From the NCBI RefSeq assembly GCF_988243305.1, contig NZ_OZ547136.1: a stretch of 64,000 nucleotides of DNA. One strand, given 5' to 3'. A program made the position numbers and the translations under genes. Positions 1,864-38,940 of the stretch are shown here, in pieces. The notes under the pieces are model-generated. The model worked only from the letters and a program-made list of their open reading frames with translations. It was not told where the DNA came from and did not search any database. Positions within the stretch are counted from its first letter, which is position 1. Every line of letters starts with the position of its first letter.

Positions 1864-2637
1864 ATGAAATCTGCCACCTCTGCGCAAAGACCTTACCAGG
1901 AAGTCGGGGCGATGATCCGCGATCTGATCATAAAGACGCCGTACAATCCTGGCGAACGGCTGCCGCCGGAGCGTGAAATTGCAGAAATGCTTGATGTCAC
2001 GCGGACGGTGGTACGTGAAGCGCTGATCATGCTGGAGATCAAAGGGCTGGTGGAAGTGCGCCGGGGTGCCGGTATTTATGTTCTTGATAGCTCAGACAGC
2101 CAGAACACAGACAGTCCGGATGCCAACGTCTGCAATGATGCCGGTCCTTTTGAGCTGTTACAGGCGCGTCAGTTACTGGAAAGTAACATCGCGGAATTTG
2201 CCGCCCTGCAGGCTACCCGCGAAGATATCGTCAAAATGCGTCAGGCATTGCAACTGGAAGAGCGTGAGCTTGCTTCCAGCGCGCCGGGCAGCAGCGAAAG
2301 TGGTGACATGCAGTTCCATCTCGCCATTGCCGAAGCGACGCATAACAGCATGCTGGTGGAGCTATTCCGTCAGTCCTGGCAGTGGCGGGAAAACAATCCG
2401 ATGTGGATCCAGTTGCACAGCCATCTGGATGACAGCCTGTATCGCAAAGAGTGGTTGGGCGATCACAAACAGATCCTCGCCGCGTTAATCAAAAAAGATG
2501 CCCGTGCGGCGAAGCTGGCAATGTGGCAGCATCTGGAAAACGTTAAGCAACGTCTGCTGGAATTCTCGAACGTTGACGATATTTATTTTGACGGCTATCT
2601 GTTTGATTCATGGCCGTTGGATAAAGTCGACGCCTGA
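1864..2637 (+). CDS. uxuR: GntR-family transcriptional repressor of hexuronate utilisation
   Basis: 257-aa ORF with N-terminal GntR-type winged HTH and FadR-like C-terminal domain; position after uxuB. Confidence 0.92.
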   Translation: MKSATSAQRPYQEVGAMIRDLIIKTPYNPGERLPPEREIAEMLDVTRTVVREALIMLEIKGLVEVRRGAGIYVLDSSDSQNTDSPDANVCNDAGPFELLQARQLLESNIAEFAALQATREDIVKMRQALQLEERELASSAPGSSESGDMQFHLAIAEATHNSMLVELFRQSWQWRENNPMWIQLHSHLDDSLYRKEWLGDHKQILAALIKKDARAAKLAMWQHLENVKQRLLEFSNVDDIYFDGYLFDSWPLDKVDA

Positions 2638-2648
2638 CTGATTATGAT

Positions 2649-2680
2649 AAGCGCAAGGGTAAACGTTCCTTGCGCTTTCT
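2649..2680. terminator. Putative hairpin terminator between convergent uxuR and yjiC
   Basis: Inverted repeat aagcgcaagg...ccttgcgctt followed by tctt; lies between the stops of two convergent genes. Confidence 0.45.
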
Positions 2681-2777
2681 TAAATTAAGAAGTCGCAATG
2701 AGTATTACTTTGTAAATTGCAGGGTATTGTTTAAATATCTGTATAACCTGAATGTTAGTACTCATTCTTCTCAGTAG

Positions 2778-3608
2778 TCATTTACCAATATAATTCCATT
2801 CACCATTTTTTAATTCAAACAGTTCTGGAAGAGATGACGGTTGCAGAGTCATGCGTTTGAGTGGCGCATCTTCATCACCGGGGATAACTTTATATCCCAT
2901 TTTTGCATGGATCTCCGCGGTACCTGGATAGGCTTCTATACCAATTATTGGGTCATTTCCCATTCCAATATTAGCATTAAGTAATGCGGCAAGGGCGAAT
3001 CCGGAAGAATTTGCTACCCCGGTTACCGTCATTATCTGATCAATATAGATATCAATTCTTGGCTGCTCATTGGTCCATCTTTTTGCCTGAGAAGCTGGAA
3101 GGGTTGAAATATATCCTATCGTGGTTCCGGCATAACCAGGAACATTGCAACCAGGGCCTAATGTTATTTCATGAACTGTATAGTCCTCAACAGGATCGAA
3201 AGGGCTCTTCATAAATAAATTTAGCCGTAAACCTTCTGCTAACTCTGTGGCAGCATGCGCCTTTTTACATATACCACCATATATTTCGTCTAAAGCTGAG
3301 GTGATTTTCAAGTTTCGATAGAGCATACGCCCTGTTGTTGTAATACCATTGAATTCGCTGCATGTTTCTGTTACATAATTAAATGGCCAGGACTGTTTGC
3401 CAATATTAAGTTTTCTAATTTCGACAACGCTTTTTCCATCGTAATTATGGTTATTGCCACGAGTAAGAGGCAGAAGATAGATATTTTCCGTATCCATGCG
3501 TGCATATTCATATCGACGTGTTAACTCATTGTCGACTTTTGGGTGATGAAGGAAGTGATTATTTGTATTGAATTGGTTATTAGCGGCATTGCTTAATGGC
3601 ATAGACAT
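2778..3608 (-). CDS. yjiC: Uncharacterised protein YjiC
   Basis: 276-aa ORF in the conserved position between uxuR and iraD; AT-rich codon usage. Function unknown. Confidence 0.8.
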   Translation of the reverse strand: MSMPLSNAANNQFNTNNHFLHHPKVDNELTRRYEYARMDTENIYLLPLTRGNNHNYDGKSVVEIRKLNIGKQSWPFNYVTETCSEFNGITTTGRMLYRNLKITSALDEIYGGICKKAHAATELAEGLRLNLFMKSPFDPVEDYTVHEITLGPGCNVPGYAGTTIGYISTLPASQAKRWTNEQPRIDIYIDQIMTVTGVANSSGFALAALLNANIGMGNDPIIGIEAYPGTAEIHAKMGYKVIPGDEDAPLKRMTLQPSSLPELFELKNGEWNYIGK

Positions 3609-4280
3609 AATAGTTACCTTTTATGAGTATTTCAATGATGTTTAGAAAAATAGATAAATTTTTCTGTAGTAAAAAGAGAAGTAAACAAATGACATGCATG
3701 TTTCTGTTGTAGTGATATCAACTCTACACGGTGATATTAAAGGGTGGGAAACACTATAAAGTATCAAAAAACGCTCATTTAAAATTATTTGCATGCAATT
3801 TAAAAGCATATCTTATTACTAATTGGAATTTGATGTTGCTATATTGATGTCTATATTAATAATGCCTGTGAATGGTATTTTTGATGTATTTGATATGTTA
3901 TCAATTTATATTATTTACAAACTAATTGTTTCAAATAATACATGGCTGATTATGCGAAGATAAATAATTGCTTTCCGGGATTATGTAGCGACGGTGACAA
4001 GTATTTTCATCTACGTAACTATTCGGAATATTCAGAATATACTAGCAGTTTTTTTTTGAGTTTGATGATTTTTATCAAATCATGACTTTTTTCCTGAAAA
4101 GTCAGTAGATATTCATAGGCAAGTAAGGTTTTATACTTTGCTGACAGGATTCAGGCCTGTCTCAGACTGACATGGATGTAATGAACAAAAGGGAATGGCT
4201 ATGGAAAATGAGCATCAATACAGTGGTGCCCGGTGTTCAGGGCAAGCCGCATATGTTGCTAAACGTCAGGAGTGCGCAAA

Positions 4281-4673: not shown

Positions 4674-5577
4674 GCACAATCTCCAGCTCGCGCAGTTCAC
4701 GCCAGAAGCGTTCGGCAACGGGATTCATACGGGTGTTCATCCGGTATGCGTAGGCCTGAATCGGGATCACCAGTTCGTCCCGATTAAGCACAACGAGCTG
4801 CCCGCTGCGAATTTCTTGTTGGATGGCGTACTCCGGCAGCCAGGCAATCCCACAGCCGTCGAGGGCAACCTGCTTTAATAGCTCGCTCATCGAAGAGACA
4901 AAAAAGGTGCTGAAACTTAACTCGCTGTGGCGCGTCAGGGTGCGATTAATCAATCGCCCCATGTAGGAGTTGCGGCTGTAATTCAGTAACGGAAAGTGTG
5001 GCTGCGCGAGGTTAAACAGTGCTTCTCCGTGTTCGTCACTGGCGCAGACGGGGAATAATTGAGATTCAAATAAGCGAATGTGGTCAAACGGCGCTTCCAG
5101 CAAATCTTCGTCGTGAAAGGAAAAAATACAGTCACTTTGCCCTTCACGCAGTTTATCGACCGCTTCATCGACATCAATGGCTTCAATCGCCCAGGTAAAG
5201 AACGGCGGCATCTGGCTGATAATGGACGGTAACAGGCCGAGGGAAAGAGAGTGTGCAGCGGCTATCTTGATTTTACGTTGCGCGTAATCGCTGCCGCCAC
5301 GCAGCTCTGCCAGGTTGCTTTCTAACTGTTGCAACAGATGGCGGATCTGCGAATGGAAGATTTTCCCTTGTTCCGAGAGTTGCAGCGGCGTCACCTGGCG
5401 GTTAAACAATTCAACGCCAATCGCCTGTTCCAGTGCACGGATGCGGCGGCTGAATGCCGGTTGTGAGACGTTGCGACTGACTGCTGCCTGGGAAAAGTTG
5501 CGGCATTTTTCCAGGGTCAGAAAATCATAAAGCCATTTTGTTTCAATATTATGCAAAACCGCACCACAGTCATCCAT
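4666..5577 (-). CDS. hypT: LysR-family transcriptional regulator HypT (YjiE)
   Basis: 303-aa ORF with N-terminal LysR HTH ([23 protein letters not shown]) and LysR substrate-binding domain; convergent 8-nt overlap with iraD. Confidence 0.88.
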
Positions 5578-5641: not shown

Positions 5642-6814
5642 TTAAGCCATTTCAAACGTTCCTTTCACGCAGGCTTTGCCGTCTTTGACCATCAGTTTGC
5701 CGCGAGCGTATACCTGCTCAATGCGCAATTCTGGCGTCATGACCAGTAAGTCTGCGTCATTGCCTGGCAGAATTTCGCCTTTCCCGCTCAGGTTAAGGAA
5801 ACCGGCTACGCTACTGGTGAGCGGGCGCAGGGCATCGCTGATACTGAAATCATAGTCTTTGACCAGCACCTGCACGGTTTCCAGCAACGTTTCAAAACCT
5901 GCAACACCGATATGGGTTAAATTCCCTTCGTCATCGAAGAACGGCTGGCTACCGTTGCCGTCGGAGCTGAGGGTGACGCGTGCCAGCGGAATACCGGCCT
6001 GAACGGCGCGGGCAATACCTTCGGCAGGGGCAACCGGTTCGTCAATGCTGCTGGTGATGTCGATAGTGCCGCCTTTGCGCGCGAACTCCAGCGCCTGCTC
6101 AAACAACGGTACGTTGCGGTTAACGTGGGTCGGCAGCAGCTTGCTGATCGGCACATCGCAGTTTTCCAGCAGGTCATAGACAGGCTGTAACGCCTTTTTA
6201 CTGTCGCCCATGTGGAACACGGTGACGCCAGGTTTACCGCCGAGCAAACCGCCAACGCGGGATTCTGCCGCCATATTAGCCAGGTGATAAACGTCCGGTG
6301 CGGCAGAACGGTGATCAGAGATGGCGCATTTCACGCCAATCACACGATCGATAATCGCCACGTCTTTTTCCACGGAACCCGTAATAGTGCGGGAAGGGAC
6401 ATGATAAGCGCCGGTCAGCATCCAGGCGCTGATGCCTTCTTCATTGAGCGCACGGGTCTTGGCGAGCAGGGATTCCGGGTGACGAGAGATAGAGTCAGTG
6501 CCGAGCAGACCAACCACTGACGTGACGCCCGCTTCCGTCAGACGACTTAACGCCACTTCCGGCGTGCGCGTCGTGGGACCTGCTTCACCGCCACCGCCAA
6601 TTAAATGAACGTGTTGATCAATAAAACCTGGGCAGAGGATCTGCCCGCTGAGATCGACAACCGTGCAGTCCGGTACAATATCAGAAGGGATATTACTGGC
6701 AACGGCGATAATTTTGCCGTTAGCGACGAGGACATCGCAAACTCCCCGATCTTCCGGCGCATACAAATGCGCTCCCTGCAGCAGGGTAAAACCGGCTGCG
6801 GTATAATCAATCAT
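5642..6814 (-). CDS. iadA: Isoaspartyl dipeptidase
   Basis: 390-aa amidohydrolase-fold protein (HVHLIGGGGEAG metal-binding motif); conserved position. Confidence 0.9.
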   Translation of the reverse strand: MIDYTAAGFTLLQGAHLYAPEDRGVCDVLVANGKIIAVASNIPSDIVPDCTVVDLSGQILCPGFIDQHVHLIGGGGEAGPTTRTPEVALSRLTEAGVTSVVGLLGTDSISRHPESLLAKTRALNEEGISAWMLTGAYHVPSRTITGSVEKDVAIIDRVIGVKCAISDHRSAAPDVYHLANMAAESRVGGLLGGKPGVTVFHMGDSKKALQPVYDLLENCDVPISKLLPTHVNRNVPLFEQALEFARKGGTIDITSSIDEPVAPAEGIARAVQAGIPLARVTLSSDGNGSQPFFDDEGNLTHIGVAGFETLLETVQVLVKDYDFSISDALRPLTSSVAGFLNLSGKGEILPGNDADLLVMTPELRIEQVYARGKLMVKDGKACVKGTFEMA

Positions 6815-6826
6815 GGTAACTCCTTG

Positions 6827-7288
6827 TTAAACAATAAGCTGCATAACCCAGATCGACAGCAATGCGTTAATCACGCAGACCGTAATGATATGCGGGTAAT
6901 ATTTGGCATTCACTTCGGCTGTCCCCAGGCAGCGACCGACATTTTGCACCGGGTTGCCCATTAAATACATCGCGGGCAGTAAAACGGTGACATCGTGACC
7001 GGTTAATGCGCCAGCGGTTGCCAGACTGGCGGCAACACCGACTGCGCCACCCATACTCATTAATGCGGCTAAAAGGACGGTTGCCGCTTCACCTGGCAAT
7101 CCCCACAGCGCCATTACCGGTTCACAGATATGCCCCACCCAGTCGAGCAGGCCGGTAATTTTCAGCGCCTGAATGATGACAAACGCCATCACCACGTTTG
7201 GTAGCAGGTTGGTGGTGGCGATAGTAAAGCCACGGCGCGCGCCATCGATAAACATATCCATGACGTTTTTGCGGACCTGAGTTGTCAT
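6827..7288 (-). CDS. yjiG: Inner-membrane protein YjiG (nucleoside-transporter/SpmB-like)
   Basis: 153-aa hydrophobic ORF; 4-nt overlap with yjiH start suggests a yjiH-yjiG operon. Confidence 0.85.
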   Translation of the reverse strand: MTTQVRKNVMDMFIDGARRGFTIATTNLLPNVVMAFVIIQALKITGLLDWVGHICEPVMALWGLPGEAATVLLAALMSMGGAVGVAASLATAGALTGHDVTVLLPAMYLMGNPVQNVGRCLGTAEVNAKYYPHIITVCVINALLSIWVMQLIV

Positions 7289-7980
7289 GCTTGCGCTCCT
7301 TGCGTTGGGTTGCGACGTTCTTCGAAGTTAAGCCAGACGCGCAAAATGTTGGCTCCGACAAATTTAAACACCAGGATGACTGCTAAAGGTACGATTACGG
7401 ACGTGCCCAGAAAGGCAAACACCGCGACGCCGGAAGAGAAGTAGTTGGTGATGATGGCGCTACCACTGGTTTGATATGCGGCGAAAATCACTTTATCGCG
7501 TTCGGTAATTTCACCTTCCTGCGCCAGCTCTTTGGTCATACCGGCGGCGGCATCAGTGTTTTGCAGGTTAGCGATCAGCGCCAGCGAGCAGATCCCTGGA
7601 ATACCCAACAACGGTTTTAGCACAGGTGTCATTAACTGCTGCGCGGCGCGTAATCCACCAAGACCATCGGTAATTGAAATAATCCCCAGAGAGAGAATGA
7701 CTGACGGTGCCAGCTCCAGCGCAAAGAGAAAGCCATCTTTAGCCCCCGCGCCACCCGCGCCGCGAAACGAGGTGGTGGCTCCGTTCGCACCAGGCAGTTG
7801 CCCAAACGATCCGTTCAGCACGGAAAAATCAAAAACGCGCCACCAACTGTCTGTCCCGGAAAAAACACCGGAAAAAAAGATTATGGTGAGAAAAAAAGCC
7901 AGATACCCTTTAATGCCCACTTTTTCTGTCGCCAGCTCCCCGGCTACAGCATCCCCTTGTTGTGTCATAACAATCCCCAT
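7285..7980 (-). CDS. yjiH: Inner-membrane protein YjiH
   Basis: 231-aa hydrophobic ORF upstream of and overlapping yjiG. Confidence 0.85.
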   Translation of the reverse strand: MGIVMTQQGDAVAGELATEKVGIKGYLAFFLTIIFFSGVFSGTDSWWRVFDFSVLNGSFGQLPGANGATTSFRGAGGAGAKDGFLFALELAPSVILSLGIISITDGLGGLRAAQQLMTPVLKPLLGIPGICSLALIANLQNTDAAAGMTKELAQEGEITERDKVIFAAYQTSGSAIITNYFSSGVAVFAFLGTSVIVPLAVILVFKFVGANILRVWLNFEERRNPTQGAQA

Positions 7981-8217
7981 TGTTTTTTTGTGTTTGTGTG
8001 TTGCTTGAGCCAGGAAAATTCCTGGAGCTGAAAAACCTTATCAGCCATGTGGGTATGGGGAAAATGCAAGTATGTTTCTGGCTATGCGTTTTTTGCATAG
8101 CGGAAAAATTACGCTGTGGGGAAAAGGTTCTGCGCAGGATTGAGTTGCAGTAAATTCATAAACCCAGTGACAATGACATCAGTAAATTAAAGCAGAAAAT
8201 CCAGGGACGAAAACGAG

Positions 8218-8802
8218 ATGGCAAAGTACAACGAAAAAGAGCTGGCGGATACGAGCAAGTTTTTAAGTTTTGTCCTCCGACACAAACCGGAGGCGATTGG
8301 TATCGTACTGGACCGTGAAGGATGGGCGGATATCGATAAGCTCATACTTTGTGCCCAAAAATCGGGCAAGCGGTTAACCCGTGCATTGCTGGATACCGTT
8401 GTCGCCACCAGCGATAAAAAGCGTTTTAGTTATTCCAGTGATGGTAGGTGCATTCGCGCGGTTCAGGGGCATTCGACTTCGCAGGTCGCCATTTCCTTTG
8501 CCGAAAAAACACCGCCACAGTTTCTTTACCACGGTACGGCAAGCCGTTTCCTTGACGAGATAAAAAAACAGGGGCTGATTGCAGGGGTGCGTCACTACGT
8601 ACATCTCTCTGCTGATGAAGCAACGGCACGCAAAGTGGGAGCAAGACACGGATCGCCGGTTATTTTAACCGTCAAAGCACAGGAAATGGCGAAACGAGGC
8701 CTCCCTTTCTGGCAAGCGGAAAACGGGGTCTGGCTGACATCAACGGTTGCTGTTGAGTTTCTTGAGTGGCCGTTCATGCCGGCTGGGGTACAAAAACAAT
8801 AA
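8218..8802 (+). CDS. kptA: RNA 2'-phosphotransferase (Tpt1 family)
   Basis: 194-aa [31 protein letters not shown]...; Tpt1/KptA family recognised from memory. Confidence 0.85.
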
Positions 8803-8827
8803 ATTCAATATATTGCAGGGGTTATAT

Positions 8828-8858
8828 AGGCCTGATAAGCGCAGCGCATCAGGTAATG
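8828..8858. repeat. REP-like extragenic palindromic element
   Basis: aggcctgataagcgcagcgcatcaggtaatg immediately downstream of kptA. Confidence 0.55.
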
Positions 8859-8922
8859 TAGCGTTTGTTATCAGTCGGAAAGGATACCCTCGCACAAGGG
8901 TATCCTTAATAACCTACTAAAA

Positions 8923-25721: not shown

Positions 25722-27134
25722 TTATTCCATTGCCCGATACACGGCCTCGCCAATTTGCTTCAGTGCTTCGCGATAGGTTTCGCTGAGCGGCAAAGCGCAG
25801 TTGATGCGCAGACAATTACGGTATTTGCCGGAAGCTGAGAAAATCGAGCCTGCCGCCACCTGGATTTTCATGCGGTACAGCTGCCGCGCGACGCAGACCA
25901 TATCGACCTGTTCAGGCAATTCTATCCACAGTAAAAATCCGCCTTTCGGGCGCGTAATACAGATTTCGCAGGGAAAATATTCCCGTATCCAGCAGGTATA
26001 AAGCGCCAAATTGCGCTGATAGATCTGCCGCATCCGCCGGATATGGCGATGATAGTGACCTTCCAGCACAAACGTTGCCGCCGCCATTTGCGTGGACGGT
26101 ACATTAAAGCTGCTGATGGCGTATTTCATATGCATCAGTTTATCGTGATAACGCCCCGGTGCGACCCAACCCACGCGCAGGCCAGGTGCAATACTTTTAC
26201 TGAATGAGCTGCACAACAGCACTCGCCCGTCGATATCCCAGGAATGAATGGTCCGCGGGCGCGGATACTCCGTTGCCAGTTCGCCGTAGACATCATCTTC
26301 AAAAATCACAATATCATGACGCTGAGCGAGAGAGAGAACGGCCCGTTTGCGCGCGTCCGGCATAATAAATCCCAGCGGATTATTACAGTTTGGCACCAGA
26401 ATGATGCCTTTAATCGGCCACTGTTCCAGCGCCAGTTCCAGCGCTTCAACGCTGATGCCTGTTTCTGGATCGGTTGGGATTTCAATCACTTTCACGCCCA
26501 TGCCACGCAGCATCTGCATCGAACCGTAATAACAGGGGGATTCGACCGCGACAATATCGCCCGGTTTACACACCGCCATTAACGCCAGCGACATCGAGTT
26601 ATGGCAGCCGCTGGTGATGATGATGTCATCGGCAGTGACCACCGAGCCGCTGTCGAGCATCAGGCGGGCAATCTGCTCTCGCAACACTCGCTGACCGGCT
26701 AACAAGTCATAACCGAGAACGGTTTGCAGATTATGCTGCACCACCCGGCTTAGCTCCCGCCACAGCGGTTTCAGGCTGGGCGTTTCGACATCCGGCGTGC
26801 TTTTACTTAACGGAACAATGGAACTGTCGCTATGCGCCTCCAGCATATCCAGCACCTGATCCCACTGGGTAATTTCCACCGGGCGCTGCACCGGACGCGT
26901 CATCGGCGGCACTGGCGGCTGGGCTTTACGTTGTGCGACAAAATAACCCGAACGCGGCTGTGGGGTGATGAGCTTCATCGTCTCCAGCGTCTGATACGCC
27001 TGCTGCACGGTGCTGATGCTGACGCCGTGCTCCTGACTTAAGCTGCGCACCGACGGCAATTTCTCCCCGTGACGATACAGCCCCTGCTCAATCCGCTCGG
27101 CAAGCAGAGTCGCCAGATGTTGATAACGCGTCAT
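25722..27134 (-). CDS. yjiR: MocR-type regulator (GntR HTH fused to PLP-dependent aminotransferase domain)
   Basis: 470-aa ORF; N-terminal GntR HTH (YRHGEKLPSVRSLSQEHGVSISTVQQAY), C-terminal class-I aminotransferase fold. Confidence 0.85.
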   Translation of the reverse strand: MTRYQHLATLLAERIEQGLYRHGEKLPSVRSLSQEHGVSISTVQQAYQTLETMKLITPQPRSGYFVAQRKAQPPVPPMTRPVQRPVEITQWDQVLDMLEAHSDSSIVPLSKSTPDVETPSLKPLWRELSRVVQHNLQTVLGYDLLAGQRVLREQIARLMLDSGSVVTADDIIITSGCHNSMSLALMAVCKPGDIVAVESPCYYGSMQMLRGMGVKVIEIPTDPETGISVEALELALEQWPIKGIILVPNCNNPLGFIMPDARKRAVLSLAQRHDIVIFEDDVYGELATEYPRPRTIHSWDIDGRVLLCSSFSKSIAPGLRVGWVAPGRYHDKLMHMKYAISSFNVPSTQMAAATFVLEGHYHRHIRRMRQIYQRNLALYTCWIREYFPCEICITRPKGGFLLWIELPEQVDMVCVARQLYRMKIQVAAGSIFSASGKYRNCLRINCALPLSETYREALKQIGEAVYRAME

Positions 27135-27310
27135 GCTGTATTCCTTATGTGGACCATACAGAGAGAAAAACCGGTACAGATGAGGCTAAAAAACCGGATG
27201 CAGATGCTGTTTTAACCTGTCTGTATGTTAAATAAAACTAATATTTGCATCTGTATTGTGAACTGCCAGAAGACGGATGATGAAGCCTCTGAAAGATGAG
27301 GAGGCAGCAG

Positions 27311-27475
27311 ATGGAATTTCACGAAAACAAAGCCAAAACGCCGTTTATCAGACTTGTGCAACTCTGGCAGGCGGTGAGGCGTTGGCGGCGGCAAATGCAG
27401 GCCCGGCGGGTGTTACAGCAGATGAGTGATGAGCGGTTGAGGGATATTGGGTTACGCAGGGAGGATGTGGAGTGA
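27311..27475 (+). CDS. yjiS: DUF1127 small protein YjiS
   Basis: 54-aa ORF MEFHENKAKTPFIRLVQLWQAVRRWRRQMQARRVLQQMSDERLRDIGLRREDVE with a GAGGAGG Shine-Dalgarno 8 nt upstream; below the 60-aa cut-off of the ORF track, found by reading the sequence. Confidence 0.7.
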   Translation: MEFHENKAKTPFIRLVQLWQAVRRWRRQMQARRVLQQMSDERLRDIGLRREDVE

Positions 27476-27550
27476 TAGAGGATGTTGAGAATAAATCAGG
27501 ATATTAACTTTTTATATGTACCCAGGAAGAAACCAGGGTACATATAGATA

Positions 27551-28264
27551 TTAGTTGAATTTAATATCAGCAATCAATTTTTTGATATAATCTTCTGGTT
27601 TCATCTTTGTTTTTTCTTTTATTTGCTGATAAGTTTCTTTCTTAATGTTGATTTCAATTGTTTTATTTTTATTGATAATGCACGCAATTGGTAATAGTAG
27701 CAATAATGTAATAATTATAATTATAAGAATTATTTTTGAATTTCCATGTGAGTCCGATTCCTTCATTTTTTGGAATATTCTTCTCATGACTGGATTAACT
27801 GCTGAAGAAAACATAATCATAATGATAAAAACAGCCAAAAAATCTAATGTATATTTTGCGTAGTAACTTTCAGTATTCATCTCAAAAAACAGCAACCACG
27901 CCAGAGCACAAAACAATGTCATGCCAAAACATATAAATGAAATAATAAAGCCAATTTGTTGCGTTCTTTTATCTAGTTCAGAGAGAAATTTCTCACCAAC
28001 TCTTTGACCTTTATAAGGTGAAATAAGTGTGTGGGCGGCATTGAAAAATACATTTGTGCAAATCAAAACAAAGAATATATTGATTGGCATAAATCCTATA
28101 AGTGTATAAAAGAAGAAGTCTTGTTGAAGATAGTACGGTAATTGATTATCAACTTCCATTAACAATGTAAATATAAAACCGAAAGAAACATAAAAAAACA
28201 AACCTTCTTCACGTAATTTTTTAATGTATTTTTTGAATTTAAAATCTTTAATCATCTTCAGCAT
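27551..28264 (-). CDS. Uncharacterised AT-rich multi-pass membrane protein immediately downstream of hsdR
   Basis: 237-aa ORF with four to five hydrophobic segments; very AT-rich codon usage unlike the core genes; same strand as the hsdMSR operon, 64 nt after the hsdR stop. Confidence 0.6.
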   Translation of the reverse strand: MLKMIKDFKFKKYIKKLREEGLFFYVSFGFIFTLLMEVDNQLPYYLQQDFFFYTLIGFMPINIFFVLICTNVFFNAAHTLISPYKGQRVGEKFLSELDKRTQQIGFIISFICFGMTLFCALAWLLFFEMNTESYYAKYTLDFLAVFIIMIMFSSAVNPVMRRIFQKMKESDSHGNSKIILIIIIITLLLLLPIACIINKNKTIEINIKKETYQQIKEKTKMKPEDYIKKLIADIKFN

Positions 28265-35621: not shown

Positions 35622-37721
35622 ATGAAAGCCACCGAAGCCCGATTACTCGATTTTCTAAAACGCTCTCAGCAATTCGTTATTCCCATTTATCAGCGTACTT
35701 ATTCATGGTCAGAGGAACAGTGCCGCCAGCTCTGGGACGATGTAATACGTGCCGGGCAGCGTGATGATATCCCGGCGCATTTTATCGGCTCGGTGGTGTA
35801 TATCGAACAGGGCCTATATCAGGTTTCGGGGATCTCTCCCTTACTGGTGATTGACGGTCAGCAACGCCTGACAACGGCGATGTTATTGCTGGAAGCGTTG
35901 TCCAGACACCTTGGCGATGACGAGGTGATGGATGGTTTCTCCGCCATGAAATTACGAAACTATTATCTGCTCAATCCGTATGAATCGGGCGAGCGTGGAT
36001 TTAAGTTACTGCTTACGCAAACGGACAGAGAGAGCCTGCTGGCATTGATTAGACAAAAACCGCTGGCAGAAAATTGCTCTCTACGCGTGAAAGAGAATTT
36101 TGAGTTTTTCCATGAGCAAATAGGCAAACTCCACGGCAATTTCACCGCGTTATGTCAGGGCCTTTCCAAACTGCTGATTGTGGATGTCGCCTTGAATCGC
36201 GGTCAGGATAATCCGCAACTAATCTTTGAAAGCATGAACTCAACAGGAAAAGCGCTGAGTCAGGCGGATCTAGTACGCAACTATGTTCTGATGGGGCTGG
36301 AGCCAGAACATCAAAGCCAACTGTACGACGATTACTGGCGGCCCATGGAGCTGGCGTTTGGTCAGAAGGGATACACTGACTATTTCGACAGTTTTATGCG
36401 TAATTACCTGACGGTAAAAACAGGTGAGATTCCGCGAATTGGTGATGTCTATGAAGCCTTTAAACGCTATGCGCGAAAACCTGGCGTAATAGATAGCGGG
36501 ATGGAGGCGCTGGTTGCGGATATTCGTACCTATGCGGATTATTTTTGTGCGATGGCGCTGGATAGCGAAAAAGACAAAATATTAAAGATGGCGTTTCAGG
36601 ATCTACGTGAGCTGAAAGTCGATGCCGCCTGGCCGTTCCTGTTGGTGCTTTATCACGACTATAAACAGGGAATTCTTTCTGCCGCGGATTTTTTAAGTGC
36701 CACGCGTTTAATTGAGTCGTATATCTTCCGGCGCGCAGTCTGTGCCATTCCCACTAACTCATTTACTAAAACCTTCGCCACGTTTTACAAAGTGCTGGAT
36801 AAAGAGCGTTATCTGGAGAGCATTGCGGCACATTTGCTGGAACTGCCTTCCTACCGTCGTTTCCCGGATGATGATGAATTTCAACGTGAACTGAAAACTC
36901 GCGACCTCTACAACTTCCGTAATCGCAGCTATTGGCTACGTAGATTTGAAAACCACGATCGTAAAGAACGGGCCTATGTTGACACTTATACGATTGAACA
37001 TATCATGCCGCAGAACCCTAATTTATCGGCGAAGTGGCGCGATGACCTTGGTCCGGAATGGAAGCGAATCCATAAAAAGTGGCTCCATACGTTGGGTAAT
37101 TTAACGTTAACTGGCTATAACTCAAGCTACAGCGACCGTCCATTTGCGAAGAAGCGAGATATAAAAGGTGGCTTTAAGGAAAGTCCATTACGCCTGAACA
37201 CGGGGTTAGGGCAATGTGAAATATGGGATCGTGCAGCGATACAAAAGAGAGCGGAACGTCTGTCCGAGCTGGCAATAGACGTCTGGGCGATCCCCAAACT
37301 TTCGGAAGACGTGTTGGCTCGTTATCGCACCGTCGTTGAACGAGGAACGGGATATGTCCTTGCTGATTTCCCGCAACTTGAAGAAGGTACGCACATCCGC
37401 GTACTTTTTGACAGCCTTTCTGATGCCGTTATGACGCTGGACGCTGGGGTTACGCGAGAAATATTGAAGCTCTATGTTGCCTTCAAAGCGGAGACGAATT
37501 TTGTTGATGTGGTGCCGCAAAAAAGTCGCTTACGTTTATCACTAAATATGCCATTCCATGAACTGGTTGACCCAAAATGTATGGCTAAAGATGTCACAGA
37601 TATAGGCCGTTGGGGCAATGGCGATGTTGAAATAGGTTTCAGCGATCTTTCTGAGCTTCCTTATGTGATGGGATTAATTCGTCAGGCATTTGAAAAGCAG
37701 ATGGATAACGCGATGGTTTAA
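35622..37721 (+). CDS. GmrSD-like DUF262/DUF1524 protein (putative modification-dependent Type IV restriction endonuclease, BrxU/SspE-like)
   Basis: 699-aa ORF; N-terminal DUF262/ParB-like NTPase motifs (IPIYQRTYSW...VIDGQQRLTT); central His-Me/HNH-like DUF1524 region (YTIEHIMPQNPN...W...HTLGNLTL); AGGAG Shine-Dalgarno; divergent from hsdM. Confidence 0.8.
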   Translation: MKATEARLLDFLKRSQQFVIPIYQRTYSWSEEQCRQLWDDVIRAGQRDDIPAHFIGSVVYIEQGLYQVSGISPLLVIDGQQRLTTAMLLLEALSRHLGDDEVMDGFSAMKLRNYYLLNPYESGERGFKLLLTQTDRESLLALIRQKPLAENCSLRVKENFEFFHEQIGKLHGNFTALCQGLSKLLIVDVALNRGQDNPQLIFESMNSTGKALSQADLVRNYVLMGLEPEHQSQLYDDYWRPMELAFGQKGYTDYFDSFMRNYLTVKTGEIPRIGDVYEAFKRYARKPGVIDSGMEALVADIRTYADYFCAMALDSEKDKILKMAFQDLRELKVDAAWPFLLVLYHDYKQGILSAADFLSATRLIESYIFRRAVCAIPTNSFTKTFATFYKVLDKERYLESIAAHLLELPSYRRFPDDDEFQRELKTRDLYNFRNRSYWLRRFENHDRKERAYVDTYTIEHIMPQNPNLSAKWRDDLGPEWKRIHKKWLHTLGNLTLTGYNSSYSDRPFAKKRDIKGGFKESPLRLNTGLGQCEIWDRAAIQKRAERLSELAIDVWAIPKLSEDVLARYRTVVERGTGYVLADFPQLEEGTHIRVLFDSLSDAVMTLDAGVTREILKLYVAFKAETNFVDVVPQKSRLRLSLNMPFHELVDPKCMAKDVTDIGRWGNGDVEIGFSDLSELPYVMGLIRQAFEKQMDNAMV

Positions 37722-37764: not shown

Positions 37765-38499
37765 ATGACAACCAAACTACTGGACCTGAGCTGGAATGCA
37801 AATGCCATCCCGGCGATGCAAATTGTCGGTACGCGCGCGGCCTTGTTTACCTTCAAAACGCATATGGCAGGGTTTGTCTGGGATGCCGCGCAACTGGAAA
37901 ATAACCCCTATACCTTTGTTGAAGTTAAAACGCTGCTCGATGGCGTCACCGTTGGCGGGCATAAGGTCAGTGATACTGAGCAGGTGTTGAACCTGGCAGA
38001 TAGCGCAAAAAAACTGATTGAACTTGTGCAATCCGGGCGTTTCGATCTTGATAAGAAAACGTTCACGTTGCTTAACGGCATTATTGCGCGTAATGAGGCG
38101 CTGGAGTGGGGCGTTTTTCGCGGCGAAGGTGATGAGTTACATTACAATGCGCGCGTTCACCTCGGCGAGTTGGGCACCCATTTCCCACCAGCCACAGAAG
38201 CAGGTGCACCTGAACTGAATCGAATATTCGCCGCAGGTGTGGCACAAATAAAAGAGATGCCACCGTTCGAAGGGGCGCTGGCAATGTTTTTATTTGGTGC
38301 TTATTTTCAGTTTTTCTTTGATGGCAACAAGCGTACCAGTCGCCATATGATGAACGGCTGGTTAATGCGCCACGGTTACAATCCCATTAGTGTACCCGCA
38401 GCTCGTGCGCTGGAGTTCAACAGCAAAATGGTGCGCTTTTATCACAGCAAAGATGCCAGTGAAATGATGGCATTTTTGGTGGATTGCTATCAGGTTTGA
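37765..38499 (+). CDS. Fic/Doc-like protein with non-canonical active-site motif (Q-x-F-x-DGNKR)
   Basis: 244-aa ORF; segment AMFLFGAYFQFFFDGNKRTSRHMMNGWLMRHGYNPISV matches the Fic/Doc core (HxFx(D/E)GN(G/K)RxxR ... LL.RHGY.P) except that His is replaced (Gln/Phe); starts 44 nt after the GmrSD-like gene with AAGGA Shine-Dalgarno. Confidence 0.6.
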   Translation: MTTKLLDLSWNANAIPAMQIVGTRAALFTFKTHMAGFVWDAAQLENNPYTFVEVKTLLDGVTVGGHKVSDTEQVLNLADSAKKLIELVQSGRFDLDKKTFTLLNGIIARNEALEWGVFRGEGDELHYNARVHLGELGTHFPPATEAGAPELNRIFAAGVAQIKEMPPFEGALAMFLFGAYFQFFFDGNKRTSRHMMNGWLMRHGYNPISVPAARALEFNSKMVRFYHSKDASEMMAFLVDCYQV

Positions 38500-38637
38500 A
38501 TAAGTGCTGGATGGTGTCCCAATGCTGCCATCCAGCCCCTTCATATCAACTTCCCTATCTTTTCCTAAAACGTGATGCTATTTCCAACATTCGAATCATC
38601 AGTGCACGAAAAGCAGATCGTAAAGAGAGGAATCGCT

Positions 38638-38940
38638 ATGAGCATGGTTAAACATAAACGAGGGACCTCCTCTACACTCGATGTGCAGCATGAGGCCGAA
38701 TTGAAGGCGCTGGCGAATAAATTCGACGAAGAGATTGATTACAGCGATATCCCACCTTCCAGCGATGAGCAATGGTCTAACGCAGAACGCGGTAAGTTTT
38801 ATCGGCCATTGAAAACCCAGGCTTCGGTGCGTATTGATGCTGATGTGATGGAATGGCTGAAGCGACCTGGTAAAGGCTATCAAACTCGCCTGAACGCAAT
38901 TTTACGTGAAGCGATGCTGCGCGATCAGAACAAAAAATAA
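38638..38940 (+). CDS. BrnA-like (COG3514) ribbon-helix-helix antitoxin-family protein
   Basis: 100-aa product from the ATG at 38638 (AGAGAGG Shine-Dalgarno); C-terminal RIDADVMEWLKRPGKGYQTRLNAILREAM resembles the BrnA antitoxin signature; no BrnT-like (DUF497) partner ORF adjacent. Confidence 0.65.
   Translation: MSMVKHKRGTSSTLDVQHEAELKALANKFDEEIDYSDIPPSSDEQWSNAERGKFYRPLKTQASVRIDADVMEWLKRPGKGYQTRLNAILREAMLRDQNKK

Follow-up and report, generated by a model that had tools for sequence, protein, structure and literature searches.

Our analysis of the window, a 64,000-nt stretch of DNA (contig NZ_OZ547136.1, assembly GCF_988243305.1), identifies the short open reading frame at positions 27311–27475 as yjiS, an annotated and experimentally studied gene at the boundary of a published restriction island; the gene itself is already known. 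The reading that we regard as likely overall, combining the analysis of the window with published work on orthologues, is that this chromosomal yjiS, paired with yjiR at the edge of the island, encodes a DUF1127 kinase modulator that would brake the Pho regulon. The gene anchors, at a fixed position, the left side of a hypervariable restriction locus with a long history of study, and a link to PhoR signalling has recently been reported. It also provides a calibration point, being a functional 54-codon gene whose longest frame falls one codon short of a 60-aa cut-off and which was nevertheless recognised from raw sequence. Three observations are of modest value for work on YjiS and YjiR, namely the strict pairing of yjiR with yjiS, the invariant operator-like boxes between them, and the loss of the pair in about one-third of E. 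coli genomes; none of the three opens a new kind of system.

The yjiS coding sequence lies on the plus strand and comprises 54 codons, from an ATG at 27311, followed by a TGA stop codon at 27473–27475. Its 54-aa translation is MEFHENKAKTPFIRLVQLWQAVRRWRRQMQARRVLQQMSDERLRDIGLRREDVE, in which residues 18–54 form the DUF1127 domain and residues 45–48 the DIGL motif. A Shine-Dalgarno sequence, GAGGAGG (27298–27304, plus strand), is separated from the ATG by a 6-nt spacer; in Citrobacter and Klebsiella the corresponding sequence reads GAGGAGG or GGGGAGG, and a 49-sequence consensus contains it as well. An upstream in-frame ATG (27296–27298, plus strand) gives a mechanical ORF of 59 aa but is probably not the start. 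We rejected the 59-aa form because its ATG overlaps the Shine-Dalgarno sequence, is closed off in K-12 by an in-frame TAG that separates it from the real yjiS ATG, and is absent in Citrobacter. The N-terminal sequence MEFHEN is invariant among YjiS orthologues and backs the start at 27311. Since even the longest form of the frame, from the ATG at 27296, measures 59 aa, the gene was missed by the 60-aa ORF cut-off. A 60-aa antisense ORF (27212–27394, minus strand) was likewise rejected, because the minus-strand frames hold stop codons in most orthologues. The surrounding 3 kb is overlapped by 48 ORFs of 20 aa or more, so that a short ORF is by itself little evidence.

The product is identical to the RefSeq YjiS protein WP_000394274.1 (strains M7424 and O157:H7 PA20), and 49 of its 54 residues (91%) are identical to those of K-12 YjiS (b4341, NP_418761.1). 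In particular, the K-12 protein, also of 54 aa, differs from the present allele by K7R, T10A, R14G, A31T, and R44K. The K-12 locus has the same arrangement, with yjiR, a 176-nt spacer, yjiS, and the Immigration Control Region in that order, and has an equal Shine-Dalgarno sequence and equal boxes in the spacer. The identity with M7424 is local only, the window as a whole matching that strain at 98.6% with indels. In thousands of E. coli genomes the gene is annotated as "yjiS: DUF1127 domain-containing protein". Pfam model PF06568 (DUF1127) matches residues 18–54 over model positions 1–37 of 37, with 46.6 bits against a cut-off of 23.3 and an E-value of 2.8e-12. Within the DIGL motif, G47 is invariant, and D45 and L48 are conserved at 90% or more. 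Arginine accounts for 11 of the 54 residues (20%), and the net charge is about +5; the mean arginine content of the DUF1127 family is 14% (PMC12501420). An earlier note on this DNA, made from the sequence alone, had proposed a 54-aa yjiS frame, arginine-rich and DUF1127-like, with a strong GAGGAGG and invisible to a 60-aa ORF track; each of these points is borne out by the coordinates, the conservation of the Shine-Dalgarno sequence across genera, the 59-aa limit of the frame, the Pfam match, and the comparison with annotated YjiS proteins.

An AlphaFold2 model of YjiS built from 30 orthologues has a mean pLDDT of 79.8 and consists of a long helix (residues 10–37) followed by two short helices (residues 40–46 and 50–53). 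Residues 1–9 are modelled with low confidence, and the hydrophobic moment peaks at only 0.43 (residues 8–25). Searches for relatives of solved structure found none by sequence (best match, Spire, E 0.24) and none by Foldseek, and no DUF1127 structure exists, as stated in PMC12501420. NCBIfam holds no model for YjiS. A scan of positions 26800–28000 with Rfam returned only sub-threshold archaeal snoRNA chance matches, at 15–18 bits against gathering thresholds of 45–54.

The functional model is borrowed from orthologues, of which the K-12 protein is 91% identical and the Salmonella protein more distant; the present allele is known from its sequence alone. Remme et al. 2025 describe YjiS as the sole DUF1127 protein in E. 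coli and report its binding to PhoR both from a bacterial two-hybrid assay, in one fusion orientation only, and from Far-Western blots with purified proteins (PMC12501420). In an E. coli yjiS mutant the pstS transcript level is raised and phosphate uptake is faster; an Agrobacterium DUF1127 triple mutant is complemented by E. coli YjiS (PMC12501420). The binding to PhoR, together with the raised pstS transcript and the faster phosphate uptake in the absence of yjiS, points to YjiS as a brake on the Pho regulon. In an AlphaFold3-derived hypothesis for Agrobacterium, the basic protein would dock on PhoR at its acidic cytoplasmic linker and thereby allow a PhoU-dependent phosphatase switch (PMC12501420). 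By extension, E. coli YjiS would be peripheral on the cytoplasmic face of the inner membrane and would bind sensor histidine kinases, PhoR in E. coli; its positively charged long helix (residues 10–37) may dock on the acidic cytoplasmic linker of PhoR and favour the phosphatase state. Several points weigh against this overall reading: the present allele differs from K-12 YjiS at five residues; the PhoR interaction comes from one paper; the docking site is an AlphaFold3-based hypothesis from Agrobacterium; the infection phenotype in Salmonella survives single substitutions of each arginine or DIGL residue (PMC11707872); a full-length copy is present in only 3736 of 5426 complete E. coli genomes; and, as regards regulation, a promoter scan yielded no consensus σ70 promoter.

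Comparison with other small proteins places YjiS among candidate modulators of sensor kinases. The Salmonella Typhimurium orthologue, studied by Venturini et al. 2025, is likewise a DUF1127 protein of 54 aa with 11 arginines and a DIGL motif; it has been seen by western blot, fractionates as a peripheral inner-membrane protein that can be released with salt and may attach through an N-terminal amphipathic helix, and is a candidate sensor-kinase modulator (PMC11707872). It differs in its reported partner, SsrA/B of SPI-2, which is absent from E. coli, and in its phenotypes, which concern macrophage escape and flagellar expression (PMC11707872). The Agrobacterium tumefaciens proteins SDP1-3 share the Pfam DUF1127 domain with YjiS, bind PhoR, and repress pst expression, but their reported similarity to YjiS is about 24%, they occur in several copies, and they contain little beyond the domain (PMC12501420). 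YjiS, in contrast, is single-copy and has an extra conserved N-terminal segment, comprising MEFHEN and a hydrophobic stretch. MgrB and SafA, which modulate PhoQ, resemble YjiS in being small proteins that bind a histidine kinase and shift its output. They are unrelated to YjiS in sequence, are membrane-inserted, and act on the periplasmic domain of the kinase, whereas YjiS has no transmembrane segment and, in the case of the Salmonella orthologue, can be extracted with salt (PMC11707872).

Two other readings of YjiS activity have to be weighed against specific modulation of PhoR. The stronger of them, which we nonetheless consider rather unlikely, is that YjiS works promiscuously at the inner membrane, as a polycationic adaptor that modulates several kinases or membrane complexes and has no privileged partner, PhoR being one among them. 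Salmonella YjiS does pull down many inner-membrane proteins, including SsrA and PspA, and single substitutions of arginine or DIGL residues leave its infection phenotype in place, so that individual residues are dispensable, which suggests a role of charge over a specific interface (PMC11707872); moonlighting has also been raised by the authors of the E. coli study (PMC12501420). However, MEFHEN at the N-terminus and a block L-x-x-M-S-D-E-x-L-x-D-x-G-L are near-invariant across genera, which argues for a specific interface beyond charge, and two distant species show the same Pho phenotype (PMC12501420).

The second of these readings, that YjiS is mainly an RNA-binding protein that uses its arginine-rich helix to bind mRNAs or sRNAs, alters their processing or stability, and affects Pho output indirectly, appears distinctly improbable. 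Its model is Rhodobacter sphaeroides CcaF1, which shares its domain with YjiS, a protein with 20% arginine, and which is reported to bind RNA and to affect sRNA maturation (PMC8034643). CcaF1 moreover complements the phosphate phenotype of Agrobacterium, which implies that one protein can show both activities (PMC12501420). Against this, no associated transcripts were evident when Salmonella YjiS was pulled down (PMC11707872), and E. coli YjiS binds purified PhoR directly (PMC12501420). The genetic context differs as well: CcaF1, a protein of 71 aa, is reported to be co-transcribed with four sRNAs (PMC8034643), whereas yjiS is followed by none, no Rfam family reaching its threshold in the region scanned and the downstream DNA being strain-variable cargo on the opposite strand. 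We retain kinase modulation, with PhoR as the E. coli partner, as the preferred reading.

Upstream of yjiS lies yjiR (25722–27134, minus strand), which encodes a MocR-type regulator comprising a GntR winged helix-turn-helix domain together with an aminotransferase-fold domain. The nearest NCBIfam model for YjiR is PdxR, with a score below the cut-off; YjiR is still listed among the E. coli transcription factors of unknown function, and yjiR is known as an accessory gene in E. coli. The two genes are divergent and separated by a 176-nt intergenic region (27135–27310), to which both promoters and an array of boxes are assigned. The pairing is strict: within a sample of loci selected by YjiS sequence patterns, yjiR is divergent from yjiS in 53 of the 53 that include upstream DNA, with spacers of 171–178 nt, and the yjiR orthologues beside yjiS have 63–99% identity, or 45% in the case of the decayed Citrobacter koseri copy. 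Joint decay of yjiR and yjiS in C. koseri and their joint loss by deletion in E. coli support the coupling of the two genes.

An alignment of 49 spacers reveals block-wise conservation from Escherichia to Pantoea and Erwinia, with invariant blocks around ATCTGTAT at a fixed distance from yjiS. Specifically, a direct repeat, (G/A)TCTGTAT-N22-ATCTGTAT (27219–27256, plus strand), comprises boxes at 27219–27226 and 27249–27256, spaced 30 bp start to start; three boxes in reverse orientation (27156–27205, minus strand) are located at 27156–27163, 27175–27182, and, in a weaker form, 27198–27205; and a further box (27134–27141, plus strand) abuts the start of yjiR. The layout of ATCTGTAT boxes in the spacer is thus <- <- (<-) -> ->. 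The hexamer CTGTAT occurs four times in the 176-nt spacer (about 0.07 expected) versus 27 times in the 64 kb counted on both strands. The spaced pair TCTGTAT-N23-TCTGTAT occurs once in the window and in 0 of 100 shuffles; 62 of 68 loci contain it, once each and in every case upstream of yjiS. The array probably represents the operator of the MocR-type regulator YjiR, since MocR operators consist of repeats, direct or inverted, that share a TGT core and helical spacing, <- <- -> -> being among their layouts (PMC5320631).

The proposed yjiS σ70 promoter (27212–27238, plus strand), TTAACC-15-TAAAAC (TAAAAG in K-12), lies within an invariant block and is overlapped and bracketed by the plus-strand box pair. 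An RNA polymerase gSELEX signal has been mapped in the yjiR-yjiS spacer, and the TTAACC-15-TAAAAG pattern was assigned on that basis (PMC3946193). A scan of 27000–27700 for consensus promoters and terminators returned nothing, so that the assignment of the yjiS promoter follows the published gSELEX pattern only. With the boxes overlapping the promoter, transcription of yjiS would be set by YjiR.

The target of interest on the regulatory side is COG5457, which we take to be the COG of YjiS and DUF1127. A YjiR regulog in Enterobacteriales with COG5457 as its target was predicted in 2016 (PMC5320631 supplement); the regulatory link between yjiR and yjiS is therefore a prior computational prediction and no new finding, and we dropped any claim of novelty for the operator link. 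The two halves of a possible pathway have been published separately, the regulog from YjiR to COG5457 in 2016 and the binding of YjiS to PhoR in 2025, and our literature search found no paper joining DUF1127 and MocR. We tentatively suggest, at odds that we would place somewhat below even, that YjiS may be the dedicated single-gene output of a PLP-dependent YjiR, such that an amino compound sensed by YjiR would switch yjiS on or off by way of the box array and thereby retune PhoR and possibly other kinases. If true, this would constitute a one-gene regulon coupling amino-compound or PLP status to phosphate signalling.

Downstream of yjiS, the conserved sequence ends abruptly. In 23 of 25 matches sampled evenly down the ranking of 3739 matching E. 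coli genomes, the match to our query ends at query base 340, corresponding to window position 27475, the last base of the yjiS stop codon. At least five different, unrelated cargos begin at the equivalent of position 27476, directly after the stop codon, among E. coli strains: the bases that follow are TAGAGGATG... in this window, GGGGTATGTTCG... in O157:H7, GGGGGGATATAG... in K-12, and CCAGGAAAATTCCCC... in strain MINF_1D. G+C content falls from 0.54 to 0.31 across the junction. The variable cargo of the Immigration Control Region extends here from 27476, the first base after the yjiS stop codon, to about 38973, up to yjiA (38974 onwards), and that region has been defined as lying between yjiS and yjiA (PMC3874165, PMC2481252, PMC3874153). 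The earlier note's placement of yjiS at the left boundary of a defence island thus agrees both with the published definition and with the end of the match at 27475. The cargo is made up of a 237-aa ORF, the type I genes hsdR, hsdS, and hsdM, GmrSD, a Fic gene, and a BrnA-like gene, and PADLOC confirmed the type I restriction-modification system and GmrSD. The K-12 cargo differs, comprising yjiT, yjiV, mcrBC, symE, hsdSMR, and mrr in place of the 237-aa ORF, another type I system, GmrSD, Fic, and BrnA. The left end of the present cargo type is found in 114 of 5426 complete E. coli genomes.

In Citrobacter and Klebsiella, yjiR-yjiS is followed by genes for a MarR regulator, an RND-type membrane-fusion protein, and a DUF2955 protein (locus positions 6314–8906 and 6330–8922, respectively), and in Citrobacter this MarR/efflux operon is followed by yjiA, yjiX, and btsT. 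The slot after yjiS therefore holds non-defence cargo outside E. coli. A functional membership of yjiS in the defence island, say by regulating or assisting the neighbouring restriction systems, is very improbable and already close to refuted: although yjiS directly adjoins the island in every E. coli strain examined, the pair is conserved in genera that have the MarR/efflux operon and no restriction genes downstream, the same yjiS stands beside at least five unrelated cargos, its G+C content is core-genome-like against 0.31 at the start of the island, and the published YjiS phenotypes concern phosphate and virulence. On the preferred reading of yjiS as a chromosomal kinase modulator, the gene would lie outside the defence island proper, and its conserved sequence would serve only as the left framework flank for cassette exchange.

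Several features of the cargo were noted in passing. The 237-aa ORF (27551–28264, minus strand), between yjiS and hsdR, has about 31% G+C and encodes a predicted multi-pass membrane protein, with no Pfam match above threshold and no PADLOC or NCBIfam match; it is present in 114 E. coli genomes, always beside the present type I hsdR, and its product may be an accessory protein, so far uncharacterised, that serves the restriction system. A 13-bp hairpin (27511–27548) lies between the convergent stop codons of yjiS and the 237-aa ORF and belongs to the island, not to the conserved flank. Its 96-nt context has a minimum free energy of −24.5 kcal/mol (z −4.67). The hairpin is a candidate bidirectional terminator; having no U-tract, it was not called by the terminator scan. 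The GmrSD-like protein (35622–37721, plus strand, 699 aa) matches the PADLOC models Orf5 and HEC-06 over residues 1–557, and a separate C-terminal part (about residues 590–695) matches PDC-S18 candidates, which suggests a fused extra domain. A Fic-family gene followed by a BrnA-antitoxin-like ORF occupies 37765–38940 (plus strand), and no BrnT is annotated alongside in the related strain M7424.

To survey yjiS across species, we scanned one genome per bacterial species with the patterns MEFHEN.. and LQQMSDE.., which limit the sample to YjiS of that type, and obtained 55 yjiS loci. The loci are distributed over about 13 enterobacterial genera altogether: Escherichia, Citrobacter, Klebsiella, Raoultella, Kluyvera, Superficieibacter, Shimwellia, Pseudescherichia, Yokenella, Enterobacter, Pantoea, Erwinia, and Tatumella. 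Salmonella YjiS was not among the loci recovered by these patterns. An ATG-started yjiS frame of 53–63 aa is intact in 54 of the 55 loci, and the annotated frame is the only one open throughout seven compared sequences. Between E. coli and Citrobacter, dN/dS is about 0.08, with 26 of 48 differences at third codon positions. Among 46 distinct yjiS coding sequences, fixed residues use up to six synonymous codons (six each for L43, R49, and R50). Conservation of the frame in related genomes, on which the earlier note had staked its claim, is therefore clear. The DUF1127 match, the RefSeq annotation, the intact frames, and the free synonymous variation together identify yjiS as a real gene and not a chance ORF; judged by these comparisons, it is a protein-coding gene under purifying selection, translated from the ATG at 27311 behind a strong Shine-Dalgarno sequence. 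The contrary reading, that a short ORF such as this is a chance untranslated frame conserved on account of a non-coding element, is already refuted by the third-position bias, the low dN/dS, the lack of any other frame open in all orthologues, the free synonymous codon variation at fixed residues, and the significant Pfam match, as well as by the detection of the Salmonella orthologue on western blots (PMC11707872) and the purification of active E. coli YjiS (PMC12501420).

In Citrobacter koseri NCTC10786 (locus positions 1900–3666), a frameshift interrupts yjiS after residue 19, and yjiR is split into several ORFs. Metagenome bins labelled Collinsella sp. and Bacillota bacterium contain a yjiS with 98% identity to the E. 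coli gene, and a contig labelled Chryseobacterium sp. 18061 contains a Citrobacter-like yjiR-yjiS pair; these three records probably reflect contamination or mislabelling in public data.

Within E. coli, a megablast search with the region found matches in 3739 of 5426 complete genomes, and a blastn search with the yjiS coding sequence found at least 80% of the gene in 3736 of the 5426; about 420 genomes have the 3′ part only (nt 73–163), and 1267 have no match. Some 31% of the complete E. coli genomes thus have no intact copy of yjiS, which indicates that its function is dispensable. A recurrent deletion, as in strains PAR (locus positions 4785–5093) and 98228 (locus positions 6786–7093), has taken out yjiR along with 72 nt at the 5′ end of yjiS, so that the 3′ remnant sits immediately behind rpnD, a nuclease gene of the Rpn family; the remnant is the form present in about 420 genomes. 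The E. coli alleles fall into at least two classes, which are distinguished by the central basic stretch (residues 22–31, window positions 27374–27403) and read RRWRRQMQ versus R[ST]WWLKKQ. Synonymous divergence of yjiS within the species is unusually high, with a dS of 0.18 between the window and K-12. Together, the allele classes and the high dS would fit recombination tracts, arising from cassette exchange, that end inside yjiS.
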